Positions 26,485 to 34,747 of a DNA stretch of 64,000 nt are shown in pieces. This DNA comes from Candidatus Heimdallarchaeota archaeon (GTDB lineage: Archaea; Asgardarchaeota; Heimdallarchaeia; Hodarchaeales; Hodarchaeaceae): positions 43,512-107,511 of the forward strand of contig DXJL01000104.1 in NCBI GenBank assembly GCA_019057635.1. Reading direction: 5' to 3'. The notes under the pieces are model-generated. The model did not search any database, was not told the origin of the DNA, and was given only the letters and a program-made list of their open reading frames with translations. Every line of letters begins with the position of its first letter. Position 1 is the first letter of the stretch. The translations under genes were made by a program, and so were the position numbers.

Positions 26485-28431
26485 TTGGCCAGTAACAATC
26501 CCAAACTTGCTTTTATAAGAAGTATTGCCCAACAAGCTCGAAGATTGGAACATGAAATTTCCTCTGAAATGAAAAGCAGTGTAAATAAACTTTATTCACG
26601 ACCGAAATCCTACTATACGTTGCAAGATGTAGAAGAAGTCATAGAAAGCTTAAAAGAGAAAATGATTGTTTTAAATAAGGAAGCACATACAGAATTTTCC
26701 AAAAGAGGGATGAAAGACATTGATAATATTGACCTTGTGCAACCAGAGTCAGATTCAACACTTATAGCAAAATCTGAACTTCAAAGATTGCAGAATGAGA
26801 TTGAATCCTTAAGTCAGCAAGCAACAGATTTGTCACCCTTTGAAAAAAAAATTGCCGATTTGGAAATCTTATTAGAAGAAAAAGAAGCAGAAATTTCTCT
26901 TTTAAATTCAAAGACTGGGTTAACATCTGAAAAATATCAAAATCAATTAGAAGAGATAAATCGTATCCAGGAGCTACTTGATGAAGCTCAAAGAGAATTG
27001 AAACAGACAAAATTAGAAAGGGACAAAATTGAAGCGGAGTATGAAGTCATAGGTAATACATTGATGACTACACGTTTAGAAATTGAGGAACTACAGACAG
27101 TAATAGGAAACAAGGATATAGAATTAGAAAACTTGAACTCGGAAGTACAAGTTCTTACTAGTCATGCAGAAGATAATATTATTCTAAAAGAACAGAACAT
27201 TAAGCTAAATGACGAGATAGCAAATCTCAAAACAGTTGTTCAAAATGAAATTGAGAAGGTAAAAAAAGCATCTTCTAAACAATCGGATGATCTGTTAGAG
27301 GATAAAGAAGCTCTGAATTCACAAATTAGAGAAATTAAAATTGCTATGGCTGAATTAGAAGAAAAAAATCAAATATTGGAGAAAGAGAATGAAGATCTTT
27401 TAATTGATTCAGGAGAAACGACTGAAGAAGCCTTAACTGTTAGAAAAGAATTATCTGAATCTAGAGTTTTGCTTGACCAGAAGATCAAGGAAAATGAAGA
27501 CCTGAATCGTCGATTAAGCGATCTTGAAAATCAGGTTGAATTGCAAGAAAAAGAGAAAGTCGAATTTAAACAAAAACTTGCATCAAGTGAATCTTCTAGG
27601 GAAAAAGTGGAAGGCAATTTGACACATACACAACAAGAAATGGACGATAAGGATGCGCTTATTGAAAAAATTCAATTGCGACTTCAAGAAGCAAAAGAAG
27701 CAGAAGATAAATTACGTACTGAAAATCGTGCTTTTGTAACTTCAACAGAAGACTTACAAGTGGAAATCCAAGGTAAAAATGAACGAATTGACGTAATAGA
27801 AAAAGCTTTGAATGAAGCCCGAGAAAATCTAGCTAATTTGAAAATACATTTTGAAAAACAAAAGTCTTCTATACTCGAGCAGGAGACCCAACTCAAAACA
27901 AAAGACTTGGAAGTAGTTGAAGCAATGAAGGAATTAGACACCATCAGAGAGAAACATGAAAATTTGAGGGAGGAGATTGATGGTTCAAGAACAAAGAGTG
28001 CGGCTTTTGAGCGACAAAAAGAGACATACGATATAGAAATTAAGAGTCTAGGACTCCAGCTTGCTGAAGCGAATAAGGAAAATAAAAGATTAGATAAGAA
28101 AATTAATTCGTTCAAGAATGAAATCACAAAGAGTAATGGGGAAAATGATGCTCTTAATCGTCAGGTAACAAAACTGAAAGAGGAATCTGAACAGTATAAA
28201 CAAGCTGTCGAAGTTCTGAAAATAAATCTGTCCAAAAATCCAAAATATGCGATACTCTTTGTTCTCCAAGATATCCAACAGGCTTCAGTGGAAGAATTGG
28301 CTAAAACTGTCGCAATTCAACTTGTATTTGCAGAACGTCTGATGAAAGAATTAGAATCTGAAGGATGGATTGATTACAATGTAGATCGAGCACAAGTCAC
28401 CCTGAAAAGAAGTTTCTTAGATCTTGAATAA
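26485..28431 (+). CDS. Long coiled-coil protein with C-terminal winged-helix-like domain
   Basis: About 500 aa of heptad-rich sequence, no Walker motifs; C-terminus ASVEELAKTVAIQLVFAERLMKELESEGWIDYN. Confidence 0.85.
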   Translation: MASNNPKLAFIRSIAQQARRLEHEISSEMKSSVNKLYSRPKSYYTLQDVEEVIESLKEKMIVLNKEAHTEFSKRGMKDIDNIDLVQPESDSTLIAKSELQRLQNEIESLSQQATDLSPFEKKIADLEILLEEKEAEISLLNSKTGLTSEKYQNQLEEINRIQELLDEAQRELKQTKLERDKIEAEYEVIGNTLMTTRLEIEELQTVIGNKDIELENLNSEVQVLTSHAEDNIILKEQNIKLNDEIANLKTVVQNEIEKVKKASSKQSDDLLEDKEALNSQIREIKIAMAELEEKNQILEKENEDLLIDSGETTEEALTVRKELSESRVLLDQKIKENEDLNRRLSDLENQVELQEKEKVEFKQKLASSESSREKVEGNLTHTQQEMDDKDALIEKIQLRLQEAKEAEDKLRTENRAFVTSTEDLQVEIQGKNERIDVIEKALNEARENLANLKIHFEKQKSSILEQETQLKTKDLEVVEAMKELDTIREKHENLREEIDGSRTKSAAFERQKETYDIEIKSLGLQLAEANKENKRLDKKINSFKNEITKSNGENDALNRQVTKLKEESEQYKQAVEVLKINLSKNPKYAILFVLQDIQQASVEELAKTVAIQLVFAERLMKELESEGWIDYNVDRAQVTLKRSFLDLE

Positions 28432-28471: not shown

Positions 28472-29332
28472 TTGATGCAAGTACAAATGATTCTTAGCAA
28501 GTGTAAAGAGAATTTAGTTGATTTAGATGATCACATCATTCTTATTTTGAAGGCTATTGATCAAAATATCAGTATTATTGTAGAAGGAGAATCAGGAACA
28601 GGGAAAACAGAACTAGCAAAAACCATTGCTTTTGCCCTTGAAAGGCCATTTTACAGAGTTGATGGAGATGAAAATCTAACAATTACACAACTTCGTGGTT
28701 GGTTTGATCCGTCTTTAGTCATCGAATCAGGTTTTGGAGAAAAATCTTTCATACCAGGTCCTCTAACATTGGCAATGTCAAAAGGAGGATTATTCTTCTT
28801 TAATGAAGTCAATCGCGCGCCAAGTGAATCAATTAATGGAGCACTTTCTGCGATGGATTCCAGCGAAAGATCCATTGAAATTCCACAATATATGAATATT
28901 AAGGCAAGAGACGATTTTTATACAATTTTTACCCTTAATCCTTCAGAATATATTGGTACTAATCCGTTACCTGAAGCATTTTTTGATAGATGCATTAGAA
29001 TCCATTTAACACATAAAACTGGAAAAATTGCAGAGGAAATAGTCAAATTAAGGACTAATTGTGCTGATGATGACTTAATACACAAATGTGTATTATTCAC
29101 TGAAAAAACTCGTTCCAATACTGATTTCGAACGTGGTGCAAGTATTCGAGCAGCTATTCAGTTAACGCAATTATTGATGAATGAAGAAAACCAAGATAAA
29201 CACATAATTCAAGCGATCAATGCAGTTTACTCTGGTAAAATTAAACTACAACCTGATATTTCTCGATCAGTCGAAAAGTGTTTACATGAGATAGCTGACG
29301 AGGTTTTTTTTGAGAATAGACCAAAAAACTAG
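28472..29332 (+). CDS. MoxR-family AAA+ ATPase (AAA_5 type)
   Basis: Walker A GESGTGKT, FIPGPL, Walker B variant FFFNEVNR, TLNP, LPEAFFDR, sensor-2 ASIRAA. Confidence 0.92.
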   Translation: MMQVQMILSKCKENLVDLDDHIILILKAIDQNISIIVEGESGTGKTELAKTIAFALERPFYRVDGDENLTITQLRGWFDPSLVIESGFGEKSFIPGPLTLAMSKGGLFFFNEVNRAPSESINGALSAMDSSERSIEIPQYMNIKARDDFYTIFTLNPSEYIGTNPLPEAFFDRCIRIHLTHKTGKIAEEIVKLRTNCADDDLIHKCVLFTEKTRSNTDFERGASIRAAIQLTQLLMNEENQDKHIIQAINAVYSGKIKLQPDISRSVEKCLHEIADEVFFENRPKN

Positions 29333-29354
29333 AAAAGCGGGACGGAGAGCCCGC
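29323..29354 (+). other. Putative -1 programmed ribosomal frameshift signal
   Basis: A_AAA_AAC at 29323-29329, 0-frame TAG at 29330-29332, stem GCGGG(29337-41)/CCCGC(29350-54). Confidence 0.75.
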
Positions 29355-30363
29355 GGTATCAGAACACTCAATTAAATTATCTCACCCTACTCATCAGTAT
29401 GATCTGATTGAAACTATCCTTGAATATCGACTTCAGCAAAAGCTTGATACTTCGAAAACTATCGAATTTACAGAACAAGCACTCAAATCGCGAAATTTGC
29501 ATGCAGTTGAAATACTAGCTGAATCATATCCTCACGTCGTGGCAGACGTCATACAGATGGAAAATTTCGACTCTAATCTTGTTTTAGAATCAAAAAGTCT
29601 AGTTTTTCAAATAAAAGATCATCTAGATCCCTCAATTGAAAAAAAATTGATGCAAATACTAATCCCAAGGATGATAAAACACTCTGAATCATTATTTCAT
29701 AGCATCGATCGTTCAAAATATCCTATCCGAATACCATATATGCCAGGGAGAAAATGGAATGTCGAAAAAACTGTAATGAAATTCTTGGTTTCAGGGGATA
29801 CAAATTTAAACTACTCACATGTCGTTTGTGAGGAACGAAAAGAAAGGAAAGCAACAGTAGTCCTCCTAATTGATAAGAGTCACTCCGTTATTCAGCACTT
29901 GAGATTTATTATTATTTCAGCAATAATATTCAGTTTAGCATTACAAAATAAAGATATAAGTATAATTAGTTTTGACACACGACCATCTGTAGTTAAGAGT
30001 ATGAAAGATAGGCGCGACTCAAGTACTCAAATTGTGAAAAAACTGATAAAACTTAGCTCAGGTGGAAAAACTGATATTTATTCTGCTCTGTTAAAAGCTC
30101 AAAAAGAATTTTCTACTGTCATAAGCAGAAAAAAAACACTCGTACTGATATCCGACTTATTAGCAACGTCTGGAGAGGACTTTTTACCTATTTTAAGAAC
30201 ATTTAACGATGTTAGGATCATTGTAACACCTAGGCGTCAGACTTTACAACTGACAAAACCTCTACTCGGCCATTTACGCAGAATGAATAATGTCAAATTA
30301 TTTCTCTTACCCGAAAATGAACGATTAATCCTTAATATGTTAGAAAAGGTTTTATTTTTTTAA
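29329..30363 (+). CDS. vWA (MIDAS) domain protein, probably the frameshifted C-terminal extension of the MoxR ATPase
   Basis: MIDAS DKSHS...GGKTD...ISD. The frame is open from 29320 with no ATG/GTG/TTG until 29497. Confidence 0.85.
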   Translation, partial: LEKRDGEPAVSEHSIKLSHPTHQYDLIETILEYRLQQKLDTSKTIEFTEQALKSRNLHAVEILAESYPHVVADVIQMENFDSNLVLESKSLVFQIKDHLDPSIEKKLMQILIPRMIKHSESLFHSIDRSKYPIRIPYMPGRKWNVEKTVMKFLVSGDTNLNYSHVVCEERKERKATVVLLIDKSHSVIQHLRFIIISAIIFSLALQNKDISIISFDTRPSVVKSMKDRRDSSTQIVKKLIKLSSGGKTDIYSALLKAQKEFSTVISRKKTLVLISDLLATSGEDFLPILRTFNDVRIIVTPRRQTLQLTKPLLGHLRRMNNVKLFLLPENERLILNMLEKVLFF

Positions 30364-30365
30364 TC

Positions 30366-31856
30366 CTAATTGTTGGACACTATATCTTCAGAATTTGTGG
30401 TATCAGGTTGTTCACTTAGAATCTCATCAAGAATCTTGCTGTAATTTTGTGGATGAAAGATTTTATATATTTGTAGGATTCTTGTCCTGAAACTTGGGTG
30501 ATCACTATCTTTCTCTGGAGTTTGTAGGATTTCATGCTCAAATACCATTTTTTGAGGATGAGAAAGTAATGTAACAATAAAATTATCAAGTTCTTCTGCT
30601 TCTAAGTAATAACTTTCGTCTGAATCAAACTTTCTCCAATCAATTGTCTTTTCCTTCAACTTAGTCGGAGTGAGGACTTCATCATTTTCAACCATCGATT
30701 CGAAAAACTTTGTTCGTTTTTCCAGTAATGAAGGAACAGCCTGCGTTATTAGCTGATCTCGATAATCTAGATCTATTTTTAATCCATAGGCTGTCATTAA
30801 TCGATGTAGCTTTTCCTCGAGAAAAATCCTTGGAGCCATTTCTCTGGCTACATCCTCATTTAACTGAGTTCGAGGGAATCGATGATTTATATTACGCATA
30901 AAATCAGCTGAAGGTTTTTTTTCTCCTGCTAAACCATTTAGCCATTCAATCTCGTGAGATAAGATTTGCATTGTTTCACTTCTTTGACCCAGATGGATCA
31001 ACGAGTTGATCAAGATATCGGATCCGACTGTTTGTGCAGCGAAATAATCAGACAAAAATTCAGCCTGTCTATTTGCTGAATACAAGAACCTTACAGTAAA
31101 CTTTGTTAGTATTGCTATGACTAAATATATTAATCCCAAAAATAATGTTCTCTCTATTGCATCAATTAATCGAAATGTTTCAAACAGTGCATTTTGGATA
31201 CCGGTTAGAACCTGGAGATAAATGAATAAATAAGCAAGATTAAGAAATAAACGAGGTATAGACAAGATTAGCCGAAACAAGCTATCCCCATGTTTAACAT
31301 GGGCAAGTTCATGTGCTACAACTGCTTCAATCTCATTATCACTAAGAATTTCTAGCACATTTGTATTTAATACAATATAAGGTCTTCGCAAAAATGGAAT
31401 TGGGATCAAATCCAGACTAAACGCATTAGGTACGCTTTTTCGATAAATAAATATCTTTTTGACCTTAATTTTTGTTCGTTCTGCGACATTTGAAACAATA
31501 TTTATTGTTTTATTAACTAGCTTTTCCTCTTCTGGTAAGTGAGCCATACCTTTCTTAGGTAGTGGGAAAATTTGTATCATATTCTTGTTAGAAAAAACAA
31601 CATTTACTAAGAAGATTAATAATAGGATTTGTAATCCTCCTGTGAGGATTACCAGAACTGCAGTGAATCGTAATTCTGAAAATGGATTAATTGAAATGTA
31701 AAAACCGAGAATTTTTGCGAAAGTGAAATCTGATCCTTCATCTGGAATTTGACTGATAGAAATCCAAGATACTATAATCATTTGCAGGAGTGTTAATAAG
31801 AAAAATACACTTGCATTAAAAAAACGATATACGCGGATCCTTCTAATTGAAACCAT
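30366..31856 (-). CDS. M48-family membrane zinc metalloprotease with large insert
   Basis: PNAFS, HELAH, RQAEFLSD, distal HPSFRTRI; N-terminal TMs. Confidence 0.85.
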   Translation of the reverse strand: MVSIRRIRVYRFFNASVFFLLTLLQMIIVSWISISQIPDEGSDFTFAKILGFYISINPFSELRFTAVLVILTGGLQILLLIFLVNVVFSNKNMIQIFPLPKKGMAHLPEEEKLVNKTINIVSNVAERTKIKVKKIFIYRKSVPNAFSLDLIPIPFLRRPYIVLNTNVLEILSDNEIEAVVAHELAHVKHGDSLFRLILSIPRLFLNLAYLFIYLQVLTGIQNALFETFRLIDAIERTLFLGLIYLVIAILTKFTVRFLYSANRQAEFLSDYFAAQTVGSDILINSLIHLGQRSETMQILSHEIEWLNGLAGEKKPSADFMRNINHRFPRTQLNEDVAREMAPRIFLEEKLHRLMTAYGLKIDLDYRDQLITQAVPSLLEKRTKFFESMVENDEVLTPTKLKEKTIDWRKFDSDESYYLEAEELDNFIVTLLSHPQKMVFEHEILQTPEKDSDHPSFRTRILQIYKIFHPQNYSKILDEILSEQPDTTNSEDIVSNN

Positions 31857-31996: not shown

Positions 31997-34747
31997 TCAC
32001 CAATATCCTGCCAAGTAGTGTAATTGTGGTACATTCTTAGCAAGAAATGTACGTATTTCATCAATAAGAACTAATATACTGCCAACAAAAATAACTACAA
32101 ACCAATCGATTAGTCCTAAACCTGTTGTATCAAATATTATCTGAAGAGGGGGAAGATAAAGAATCATCAAATGAAGAGCAATAGAGCTTGAGATAGCTAA
32201 CAGCAGGTAAGGATTTCTAAAGAATTCTTTCCCAATCAAAGAATGCTCTTCTTTCCGAATATTCAAGGCCATAACCATTTGAAAAATAATAAGCATAGTA
32301 AAACTAATTGTTCTGGGGTAAATTATCTCGTCAGGGGTAGGTGCCACACCATTCACAAGATTAGGCCATAAATATAAGAAAAACAATAGCAATGAGCCAA
32401 TTCCGATCATAACACCTGAATAGATGATAAAATATATTGATTTCTTAGTTAATATTTGTTCGTCAGGATCACGAGGTTTTCTAATCATAACATCTGCATC
32501 TGGTGGGTCAAATCCAAGGGCTAAGGCAGGTAAACCATCTGTAACTAAATTTACCCAAAGAATTTGAATCGCGAGCAAAGGTAAAATGGGTTCTTTGAAA
32601 AGAATAGAGGTCAAAATCATACCCAATAACATTACCATTATTTCTCCAGCATTGCAGGAAAGCAAATAGAGAACAAATTTACGCATATTATCATATATAG
32701 TTCTTCCTTCAAGGATCGCACCGACGATCGTTGAGAAATCGTCATCAGCTAACACCATGTCTGATGCCTCCTTGGAAACATCTGTCCCAGAGATTCCCAT
32801 CGCAACACCAATATCAGCTCTTTTTAATGCTGGAGCATCATTAACACCATCACCAGTCATTGCAACAATTTGATTGCTACCCTTTAATGCCGTGACTAGT
32901 CTTAGTTTATGTTCTGGAGAAACCCGGGCAAACACATTTACCTCCTTCACTTTCTCGGATAATTCTGAATCCGACATTTTTGATAATTGGTGTCCCTCCA
33001 ATGCAATATTGGATTCTGTTTCTTCAATTAATCCAATTTCAGAGGCAACTGCAATAGCTGTTTTCAGATGATCTCCAGTAATCATTATAGGTCGTATTCC
33101 AGCTTGCTTACAAGTAGCGATTGCTTCCTTTGTACCTCGTCTTGGAGGATCCATTATTGCAACGGCTCCAATGTAAATCATCCCGGATTCTATCTCTTCA
33201 TTATCCTCAGAAAATATATGTAATTCAGCTTGTTCCTTTTCTATTTGTTTCGATGCCATTCCAAGCATTCTATAGCCCAATGTAGCAATTTTCTGTTCCT
33301 GTTCCTCTAACATTACACGTGCGCTTTCTTCTAGGGGTTTCACTTTTCCTTTCGTTAAATAATGAGTACAAATCGTAATAAGGACATCTGGAGCACCCTT
33401 CATTAATACCGAATACTTTTCACTTGAATCTTTTACAACTACACTCATTCTTTTTGAATCAGAATCAAAAGGAATTTCAAACACTCGTTCAAAGGAAGAT
33501 TTGGCTAGATTCAATCTTTTAGCTACTCTCAATAAGGCTAGTTCTGTTGGATCTCCAACAGCTTTCTCAGTCCGCTTTTCACCAATTTGGGCATTATTAC
33601 ACTCTCTCCCAATCACTAGCAATTCATTTACTGCACTATTTAATTTTAGCTTTTTTGTAACATCAAATTCAGCGTCTACAGTTAATATTTTTCTAACGGT
33701 CATTTTATTCATTGTTAATGTCCCCGTTTTATCGGAACATATGACTGTAGTAGAGCCAAGAGTTTCAACAGAAGGTAATCGTCGAATAATTGCATTTTTC
33801 TTACTCATCTTCTGCACCCCTAGAGCTAATGAGAGGGTAACAACTGCTGGAAGACCTTCAGGTACAGCGGCCACTGCAAGGCCGACAGATACGATAAACA
33901 TCTCAAGAGCTTCCCTACCCAGAATTATTCCAATAGTAAAAATGACTGCGCATATTGCAAGGCTTCCAACACCGATATATTTGCCTAAAATACCTAATCT
34001 TTGTTGTAATGGGGTTTCTTCTTTGGTGTCTTCCATTAAACCCTGAGCGATTTTACCAAACTCAGTTTTCATACCTGTCTGTGTAATAATAACCTGACCC
34101 CGTCCTCTGGAAACATTAGTTCCACTAAACACAGAATTCAGCATTTCTGCGATTTGGGCATCTTTAGATACATTGGCATTTACATTCTTGGCAACTGGAA
34201 AGGATTCACCTGTTAACATGCTTTCATCGATTCTAAGGGCAAGAGATTGAAGTAGTCTTCCGTCAGCAGGAATTTTATCTCCTTCCTCAAGAAATACAAT
34301 ATCTCCAGGAACTAGGTGGGTGGCTTCAATACGTGCTTTTTTTCCGTCCCGAACTACTGTTGAAAATGGAGCTGCCATAGATTTAAGGGCTTCTATAGAC
34401 TTTTCAGCCTTATATTCTTGAACAAAACCAAAAAAGGCATTGAATAAGACAATAACTGAGATTGCAACGGAATCAATGAAATATTCGAGTTTTGCATGTT
34501 CATCTGTAGAAAAAATACCTATTGTTATTGAAATAACAAGGGCCACGAGTAGAATCACTACTAATGGGTCAGCAAATTGCTCAAAAAATAATGTAATAGG
34601 TGATTTACTATCGCTTTTTTTCAACTCATTCAAGCCATATTTACCTATACGGCGAGAGGCTTCTTCAGATGATAAACCTAAATCATCTTTTACTCCTAAG
34701 TCAGCCATCAATGTACGTGTATCAACAGAATACCTATTATCTACCAT
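31997..34747 (-). CDS. P-type ATPase, type IIA (Ca2+/Mn2+)
   Basis: TGES, VPEGLP, DKTGT, KGAPD, TGDGVNDAPALK, NLVTDGLP. Confidence 0.95.
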   Translation of the reverse strand: MVDNRYSVDTRTLMADLGVKDDLGLSSEEASRRIGKYGLNELKKSDSKSPITLFFEQFADPLVVILLVALVISITIGIFSTDEHAKLEYFIDSVAISVIVLFNAFFGFVQEYKAEKSIEALKSMAAPFSTVVRDGKKARIEATHLVPGDIVFLEEGDKIPADGRLLQSLALRIDESMLTGESFPVAKNVNANVSKDAQIAEMLNSVFSGTNVSRGRGQVIITQTGMKTEFGKIAQGLMEDTKEETPLQQRLGILGKYIGVGSLAICAVIFTIGIILGREALEMFIVSVGLAVAAVPEGLPAVVTLSLALGVQKMSKKNAIIRRLPSVETLGSTTVICSDKTGTLTMNKMTVRKILTVDAEFDVTKKLKLNSAVNELLVIGRECNNAQIGEKRTEKAVGDPTELALLRVAKRLNLAKSSFERVFEIPFDSDSKRMSVVVKDSSEKYSVLMKGAPDVLITICTHYLTKGKVKPLEESARVMLEEQEQKIATLGYRMLGMASKQIEKEQAELHIFSEDNEEIESGMIYIGAVAIMDPPRRGTKEAIATCKQAGIRPIMITGDHLKTAIAVASEIGLIEETESNIALEGHQLSKMSDSELSEKVKEVNVFARVSPEHKLRLVTALKGSNQIVAMTGDGVNDAPALKRADIGVAMGISGTDVSKEASDMVLADDDFSTIVGAILEGRTIYDNMRKFVLYLLSCNAGEIMVMLLGMILTSILFKEPILPLLAIQILWVNLVTDGLPALALGFDPPDADVMIRKPRDPDEQILTKKSIYFIIYSGVMIGIGSLLLFFLYLWPNLVNGVAPTPDEIIYPRTISFTMLIIFQMVMALNIRKEEHSLIGKEFFRNPYLLLAISSSIALHLMILYLPPLQIIFDTTGLGLIDWFVVIFVGSILVLIDEIRTFLAKNVPQLHYLAGYW

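Follow-up and report, generated by a model that had tools for sequence, protein, structure and literature searches.

Among cellular genes, Escherichia coli dnaX, which makes tau and gamma, and Saccharolobus solfataricus fucA1 are known to use a -1 ribosomal frameshift at A_AAA_AAG or A_AAA_AAT, with a hairpin on the 3' side. The latter is the classic archaeal -1 case and needs the shift for its only functional product. To our knowledge, well-supported cellular frameshift sites in archaea are few. A gene in which such a shift joins an AAA+ module upstream to a VWA domain at the downstream end is fs-chlD, where the -1 shift occurs on a poly-A run, often with a 3' structure. In E. coli reporters, its efficiency was 10% on A7, 40% on A9 and 63% on A11, and the gene occurs in the archaea Methanocaldococcus and Methanococcus (passages of PMC3711429). 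The small chelatase subunit and the medium one are both made in this way, according to the part of PMC9227772 that deals with fs-chlD. Here we describe a locus of an Asgard archaeon that resembles fs-chlD in its layout but encodes an ATPase of another AAA+ family. All coordinates refer to the window, a stretch of 64,000 nucleotides (nt) of contig DXJL01000104.1 (GCA_019057635.1, forward strand), and the features of the locus are collected in Table 1.

In the window, the open reading frame (ORF) of a MoxR-type AAA+ ATPase is followed by a VWA-encoding ORF in the -1 frame. The last ATPase codons are CCA (29321), AAA (29324) and AAC (29327), followed by TAG (29330-32), and the A6 run spans 29323-29328. 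The -1 frame is open for 347 codons, from 29320 to TAA at 30361-63, so that the two frames share essentially the slippery heptamer. Its first ATG, GTG or TTG is TTG 29497; there is none for 58 codons. In order, the -1 ORF encodes a flexible linker and a helical domain, after which comes a VWA domain at about 29812-30213. Downstream of the heptamer, after a spacer of 7 nt (29330-36), lies a candidate hairpin with a GC stem of five base pairs (bp) and a loop of 8 nt, in DNA that otherwise has 32-39% G+C. This layout is confirmed at the coordinates given. The ATPase start listed at TTG 28472 is directly followed by ATG 28475. Because the orthologues begin with M-Q-V-Q, ATG 28475 is probably the true start, which would give a protein of 285 amino acids.

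Based on these observations, we propose that one transcription unit is decoded in two ways. A ribosomal -1 frameshift at A_AAA_AAC, assisted by the hairpin, would yield an ATPase of ~285 amino acids and an ATPase-VWA protein of ~630 amino acids, and we put the probability of this reading at roughly 0.8. Most ribosomes would translate the ATPase ORF as far as TAG 29330, where the short protomer would be released. A fraction would pause on the heptamer, with the GC hairpin 7 nt downstream placed at the mRNA entry channel. The tRNAs in the P- and A-sites would then re-pair one base back, and the -1 frame would be read to 30363. The long product is predicted to carry the full AAA+ module, the flexible linker, the helical domain and a VWA domain with complete MIDAS. 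The dnaX shift truncates the protein, whereas the shift at the window heptamer would extend it.

Short and long forms may co-assemble into hexamers, if NorQ-NorD and midasin are taken as analogues: in these, the central pore of the ring is occupied by one VWA finger. Such a ring would use only about one VWA, and the frameshift efficiency would set how many protomers carry the tethered VWA adaptor. The complex might then remodel a client bound at the MIDAS site or load metal into it. According to PMC13036017, a finger of the VWA domain in NorQ-NorD inserts into the hexamer's central pore, and the one MIDAS domain of midasin docks in a similar manner on the ring centre.

Conservation of this arrangement was analyzed in orthologous loci. 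The -1 ORF was used as query against 61 related genomes, with tblastn and hidden Markov model (HMM) matches. Full-length matches begin at residue 1-2 of the open -1 frame; protein conservation therefore starts at the slip site. The VWA ORF is 47-95% identical within the genus of the window and ~30% identical in a second family. A phylum-wide profile search covered 400 genomes, and its strong matches (E<1e-80) are confined to three groups: 21 of 22 genomes of the genus (the genome of the window included), 27 of 31 genomes of the second family, and one genome of a third family. When the single protein was used to scan the genome contigs, only two close relatives were found. A first set of 29 loci and 24 further loci correspond to 46 distinct genomes once repeats are removed. 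G014, with its orthologue split over two contigs, and G079, with a contig too short, were left out of these counts.

Every locus with both ORFs on one contig (29/29 and 24/24, 46/46 genomes) has its VWA ORF in frame -1 with respect to the ATPase, and this frame runs uninterrupted across the ATPase stop. An in-phase A_AAA_AAN heptamer is present in all 46 orthologous loci. The A-run begins at codon position 3 in 27/29 and 24/24 loci, and the two exceptions are runs of A9 and A11, each of which holds an in-phase heptamer. The codon before the run varies (CCA, ACA, TCA, TTA, CGA, AGA, ATA or GTA, encoding P, T, S, L, R, I or V). Its last base, at the wobble position, is always A and provides the X of the heptamer. 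A distance of 1-15 nt separates the A-run from the zero-frame stop. Among the 20 genus loci, the run is A6 in seven, A7 in eight, A10 in two, and A9, A11 and A13 in one each; the 26 loci of the second family have A7 and no other length. The original prediction, made from the letters of the window alone, had read the locus as a programmed -1 frameshift, with an in-phase heptamer, a 3' GC stem at canonical spacing and no independent VWA start. Heptamer and stop are kept in all 46 genomes, no VWA start is conserved, and the interpretation is supported at the level of sequence. The Asgard origin implied in the original prediction holds as well.

The stem of the original prediction likewise recurs in relatives. 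The hairpin GCGGGA-N6-TCCCGC stands exactly 7 nt after the heptamer in 17 of the 20 genus loci. The sixth stem pair is A·G both in the window and in its nearest relative, hence the 5-bp stem, and one genus locus has TCGGGA in place of GCGGGA. Of 338 seven-codon windows along the ORF, those within the ten codons that follow the slip site show the smallest third-position entropy (0.39-0.45 bits vs a median of 1.33). The hairpin arms use the rare codons CGG (17/17), CCC (17/17) and GAC (14/17). Elsewhere in the same ORFs, CGG makes up 4.4% of Arg, CCC 12.9% of Pro and GAC 24% of Asp codons. Judged by this entropy and codon usage, the genus hairpin is constrained beyond coding needs.

For the second family, 22 distinct sequences were compared. 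A different, two-part hairpin with an outer 3-bp and an inner 6-bp helix lies 8 nt after the A7 run. Pairing is kept in 94.9% of cells, vs 26-60% when the partners are slid against each other. Changes on both sides of the pair, that is compensatory changes, occur in six of six inner pairs, and none of 500 shuffles reached the covariation score. The slippery site is thus kept near a 3' structure while the structure itself is replaced, which is the pattern expected of a frameshift stimulator. No Rfam family matched 29200-29500 at E≤1.

Three genus loci lack an intact hairpin, and they carry runs of A10 (L018, genome G009), A11 (L019, G001) and A10 (L020, G016). This suggests a trade-off between the length of the A-run and the stimulator. 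The long runs of these loci fit the rise of frameshifting with poly-A length in fs-chlD, as given in the reporter data of PMC3711429. L018 resembles its neighbour L008 minus six bases of the 5' arm and plus three A's.

Several points weigh against a ribosomal frameshift with a dedicated stimulator. The window hairpin alone, with its five GC pairs, is not significant (-10.1 kcal/mol, z -1.57, 12 of 200 shuffles as stable). It is the layout as a whole, kept across relatives, that exceeds chance, rather than the fold of the single sequence. The genus stem is invariant and therefore offers no compensatory changes, and its conservation could in part reflect the encoded R-D..P-A residues. The counts overstate independence because the genomes are related. 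In the second family, an ATG stands ~23-25 codons into the -1 ORF in 7 of the 9 loci of the first batch; it could give some independent initiation, though the peptide upstream of it is conserved. The trans-frame product is predicted from the sequence layout, and mixed rings with a fixed ratio of subunits are proposed by analogy. Finally, transcriptional slippage could act at the A9-A13 loci, either in addition to the ribosomal shift or in its place.

Transcriptional slippage is the foremost rival, though an unlikely one for the locus as a whole. RNA polymerase would add one A to a share of the transcripts, and the fusion would be made in frame with no ribosomal shift. The site is a homopolymer whose length ranges from A6 to A13 in orthologues, and the loci that lack a hairpin have the longer runs, both as such slippage would have it. 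A lookup of RNA runs containing the locus gave none. However, 41 of the 46 loci have only A6 or A7. By the bacterial cases, these runs are short for efficient polymerase slippage. Slippage of the polymerase needs neither the phase of the heptamer nor the wobble A, yet both are always kept. Both conserved structures are placed on the 3' side of the run at a distance of 7-8 nt, which is ribosomal geometry; known hairpin-stimulated transcriptional slippage uses a 5' hairpin. We therefore regard the slippage as most likely ribosomal, given these sequence features.

Less probable still are two ordinary genes, in which the VWA protein would be started at a non-canonical codon, by termination-reinitiation, at TTG 29497 or later, with no fusion being made. 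MoxR and VWA partners are usually separate proteins, as stated in the portion of PMC13036017 on such pairs. A 4-nt overlap of stop and start also gives a -1 relation, and in one orthologue (L013) a TTG overlaps the zero-frame stop. Against this, the first ATG, GTG or TTG of the VWA frame falls at scattered positions, between -67 and +572 nt when counted from the ATPase stop, and none of these is conserved. A start at TTG 29497 would lose 56 conserved codons, including part of a helical domain that is conserved across families. The in-phase heptamer and the spaced hairpins would have no role, and in-frame fusions exist in nature.

An artefact or decay, that is a homopolymer assembly error (a true A7 and a plain fusion) or a recently frameshifted pseudogene, can practically be dismissed: homopolymer length errors are common in assemblies and the source is a metagenome-assembled genome of 214 contigs, but the same -1 offset is found in 46/46 genomes from many assemblies, a contig from an independent study has A6, both ORFs are intact across orthologues at 26-95% protein identity, and none has lost the zero-frame stop directly behind the run. 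The A7 mis-assembly, which the original prediction had named as a danger, was checked in Logan contigs of public runs, not in raw reads, and rare length variants are invisible in contigs. Run X2, from a study other than that of the possible source run, has a contig of 1,238 bases over 28863-30100 with 6 substitutions and 0 gaps; the independent assembly thus has A6, since this contig spans the run. A contig of run X4 (29084-29351) also has 0 gaps, but ends 23 bases past the A-run and is too short to serve as bridging evidence. Run X3 has no coverage of the slip site, and no indel is listed in any of these runs.

A natural control for the frameshift reading is provided by genome G044, which represents the third family (Kariarchaeaceae-type). 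It encodes a stand-alone ATPase of 277 amino acids, 44.5% identical to the window ATPase, and 8 nt after it an in-frame ATPase-VWA fusion of 638 amino acids. The AAA part of the fusion has diverged (36%), and K-K (CCG AAA AAA CGC) stands at the homologous junction. Four more natural fusions of 633-635 amino acids are present in the protein collection, one of them named AAA family ATPase of Candidatus Kariarchaeaceae. The combination of a split gene and a fusion is an independent indication that both AAA-only and AAA-VWA proteins are wanted. Frameshifting would supply from one gene the two products that the G044 lineage makes from two, as with ChlI and ChlD. The tree of AAA modules weakly joins the stand-alone and the fused copy of G044 (84/85), with long branches meeting at that point, and gives no order of events between frameshift first and fusion first. 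The fused copy has Q-E at Walker B and G-S-G-K-R at Walker A, and the stand-alone copy has N-E at Walker B. These residues are a hint that the AAA module of the long subunit is degenerate, as it is in BchD.

We then asked which proteins are encoded. In Pfam, the ATPase matches AAA_5 (E 8e-18, 65.2 bits vs a cut-off of 22) and AAA_3 (1e-11). Residues 165-298 of the -1 ORF match VWA_CoxE (2e-10) and VWA_2. The Walker A motif is GESGTGKT. In Walker B, which is FFFNE (ATPase residues ~101-107, about 28772-28792), Asn takes the place of the usual Asp; N for D is found throughout this ATPase family, and a paralogue (see below) reads I-N-E. The MIDAS motif, as defined in the relevant passage of PMC13036017, is complete (DxSxS-T-D), and D184, S186, S188, T250 and D278 are invariant in 13 aligned sequences. 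The best NCBIfam match is GvpN, with 72.9 vs a cut-off of 266.8 bits.

For the long form, an AlphaFold model was made of the natural G044 fusion, with 52 natural rows and a pLDDT of 79.9. In the model, the AAA module occupies residues 1-280, a disordered linker 286-312, a helical domain 311-427 and the VWA domain 431-636. The linker begins at the junction K-K (285-286), between the lid of the AAA module and the helical domain, and the join should therefore not disturb either fold. Foldseek with this model returned NorQ (E 1e-15, TM 0.81) and CbbQ (E 1e-14) first, with TM values in the range of 0.76-0.84; BchI appeared at rank 33 with a TM of 0.43. The locus is thus predicted to encode a NorQ/CbbQ-like MoxR AAA+ ATPase with a VWA/MIDAS partner, in line with the family named in the original prediction.

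The same prediction had compared the locus with chlD genes. The comparison holds for the mechanism and fails for family membership. Besides the shift on a poly-A run, the likeness to fs-chlD comprises a short AAA-only and a long AAA-VWA subunit, annotation as two adjacent genes, and relatives that are fused in frame. A D subunit of Mg or Co chelatase was rejected: BchD-ChlD TIGR02031 scores 27.9 vs a cut-off of 499.55 bits and TIGR02442 scores 15-17 vs 779 bits, and Pfam Mg_chelatase (PF01078) gives no match at E≤0.01. CobN/ChlH (PF02514) has no match in the own genome, which is 91.6% complete, with the control positive in 5 of 14 named genomes. Given the sub-threshold HMM scores, a fold nearer to NorQ/CbbQ than to BchI, and no CobN/ChlH found, the ATPase is not a chelatase motor. 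The frameshift pair is most likely an independent invention of the fs-chlD trick, and the sequence places this recoding-built AAA/AAA-VWA pair in another AAA+ family and another lineage than fs-chlD, which differs by the ChlD and CobN tests that the window ATPase fails.

The best structural matches of the AAA module, NorQ-NorD and CbbQ-CbbO (PDB 9qh4-9qhg, 6l1q, 5c3c), share with the locus a hexameric AAA_5-type ATPase that acts with a VWA/MIDAS protein (PMC13036017). Their VWA protein is separate, much larger and has its own start, whereas that of the window is predicted to be joined covalently by recoding. The window Walker B also differs, with N-E and not D-E. Midasin (Rea1), the AAA+ protein of eukaryotic ribosome assembly, likewise combines AAA_5-type modules and a C-terminal MIDAS/VWA on one chain, and differs in having six tandem AAA modules in one chain of ~4,900 amino acids. 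Among PDB sequences midasin came first, with E 6e-26. This value is the sum over six AAA repeats, and the best single midasin module has 34.4 bits, no better than bacterial MoxR (2r44), NorQ or CbbQ. A specific relationship to midasin was therefore dropped; the locus has a single AAA module, not six in tandem.

A full-text search of a literature library turned up no description of frameshifting, either for a MoxR/VWA pair or for a cellular gene of Asgard archaea; related clusters might be listed in the supplements of the fs-chlD work, which lay outside this search. Dozens of Asgard species preserve the signal, with two independently evolved hairpins and a naturally resolved control in the form of a separate gene plus a fusion. 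It could serve as a clean system for how archaeal ribosomes, which are close to eukaryotic ones, answer eukaryote-style A_AAA_AAC signals. Annotation is affected as well: these loci now appear as an ATPase gene beside a VWA gene that is truncated or given a wrong start, and the predicted long product is missed. The locus suggests that MoxR rings can carry a VWA adaptor covalently at a translationally set dose, as chelatase I and D subunits do, and offers a testable route to the client of this Asgard-specific MoxR system.

A paralogous AAA_5/VWA pair, examined as a control in the expectation of plain operons of two genes, is present in 248 of the 400 phylum genomes (E≤1e-25). Its ATPase is 42% identical to the window ATPase over residues 34-234. 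The copy in the own genome (Table 1) ends with CGT TTT TTA TAA, which is an in-phase U_UUU_UUA, and CCCGAG-N6-CTCGGG follows ~8 nt downstream; here too the VWA ORF is in the -1 frame, which passes the stop without interruption. At the place of the annotated ATG, 65 nt downstream, congeners have ATG, CTG, CTA or TTG, and the peptide preceding it is conserved with synonymous changes.

We surveyed 54 paralogue loci from at least 17 families. The -1 layout is found in 48 loci. Four loci, all of one family, have the VWA ORF in the +1 frame, with an ATG standing 10-13 nt behind the stop, and two loci, likewise of one family, are in-frame fusions that read ..D-F-F-R.. at the join. An in-phase T_TTT lies within two codons of the stop in 46 of the 48 -1 loci; the other two have A_AAC_CCT and A_AAT_TTC. 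ATG or TTG overlaps the stop in only 7 of the 48. The 40 nt after the stop fold with a mean of -9.35 kcal/mol vs -4.27 in native control windows of the same loci, and in 25 of the 48 loci at most 5% of the control windows fold as well. In most loci, the structure behind the stop is stronger than those of the control windows. Many of the hairpins differ in sequence between families (GGAGGC/GCCTCC, GGAGGT/ACCTCC, GGGAATTC/GAATTCCC). Taken at face value, these sequences suggest that -1 recoding is widespread in the MoxR/VWA clade across Asgard archaea. The paralogue case is less secure than that of the window, because many sites are U_UUU tetramers beside the stop and some families have no clear hairpin. 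Termination-reinitiation is a more serious rival there.

A wider reading would make -1 frameshifting the general and ancient Asgard way to express the MoxR/VWA clade, tethering one VWA/MIDAS finger to a homomeric AAA_5 ring at roughly 5:1, with fusions or separately started genes as occasional resolutions. We consider this rather doubtful. The proposed AAA_5 ring with one VWA would have the topology of midasin, with its six AAA_5 modules and one MIDAS, frameshift efficiency replacing gene fusion. If true, a functional analogue of the midasin architecture, built by recoding and conceivably its forerunner, would exist in those archaea that are nearest to eukaryotes.

The window has a run of eight T's (29304-29311, GTT TTT TTT) 12 nt before the A-run, in phase as U_UUU_UUU. 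T-rich runs recur at this position in the genus, where they encode F-F. The run may modulate the downstream site or be no more than the F-F motif. A shift at this run would be unproductive because the -1 frame has TGA at 29311-13 and TAG at 29317-19. The idea that it is a relic of the U_UUU site of the paralogue was dropped, since BLASTP aligns the two ATPases only over residues 34-234 and homology of the sites cannot be shown.

Table 1. Positions of the frameshift locus and its neighbours in the window, and of the own-genome paralogue on its contig
Feature	Position	Strand	Remarks
AAA+ ATPase ORF, zero frame	28472..29332	+	286 amino acids from TTG 28472; AAA_5/AAA_3
TAG closing the -1 frame upstream	29317..29319	+	leaves an overlap of 10 nt (29320-29329), essentially the heptamer
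Slippery heptamer A_AAA_AAC	29323..29329	+	X_XXY_YYZ phase: last A of CCA, AAA, AAC
-1 frame ORF after the predicted shift	29329..30363	+	344 codons plus TAA; conserved N-terminal part with no start, then VWA
Zero-frame stop TAG	29330..29332	+	adjoins the heptamer; would end the ATPase-only product
Candidate stimulatory hairpin	29337..29354	+	GCGGG 29337-41, loop ACGGAGAG, CCCGC 29350-54
MIDAS motif D-x-S-x-S	29872..29886	+	GAT AAG AGT CAC TCC; T and D MIDAS residues also invariant
Upstream neighbour	26485-28431	+	648 amino acids; mostly coiled coil; C-terminal ~200 residues conserved
M48 (HtpX-like) membrane peptidase	30366-31856	-	convergent; synteny holds for all genus loci but does not extend to the second family
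P-type ATPase	31997-34747	-	downstream
Paralogue L034, ATPase (contig C113)	1939..2820		
Paralogue L034, VWA (contig C113)	2883..3887		from the annotated ATG; frame open from before 2818

No client is legible from the neighbourhood, where the upstream and peptidase partners are syntenic within the genus only. The upstream coiled-coil protein has no Pfam match above threshold. It adjoins the locus in all genus loci (42-96% identity) and is absent from the loci of the second family. The neighbours in the second family are a beta-lactamase/Pab87-type protein and a YdjM membrane protein.

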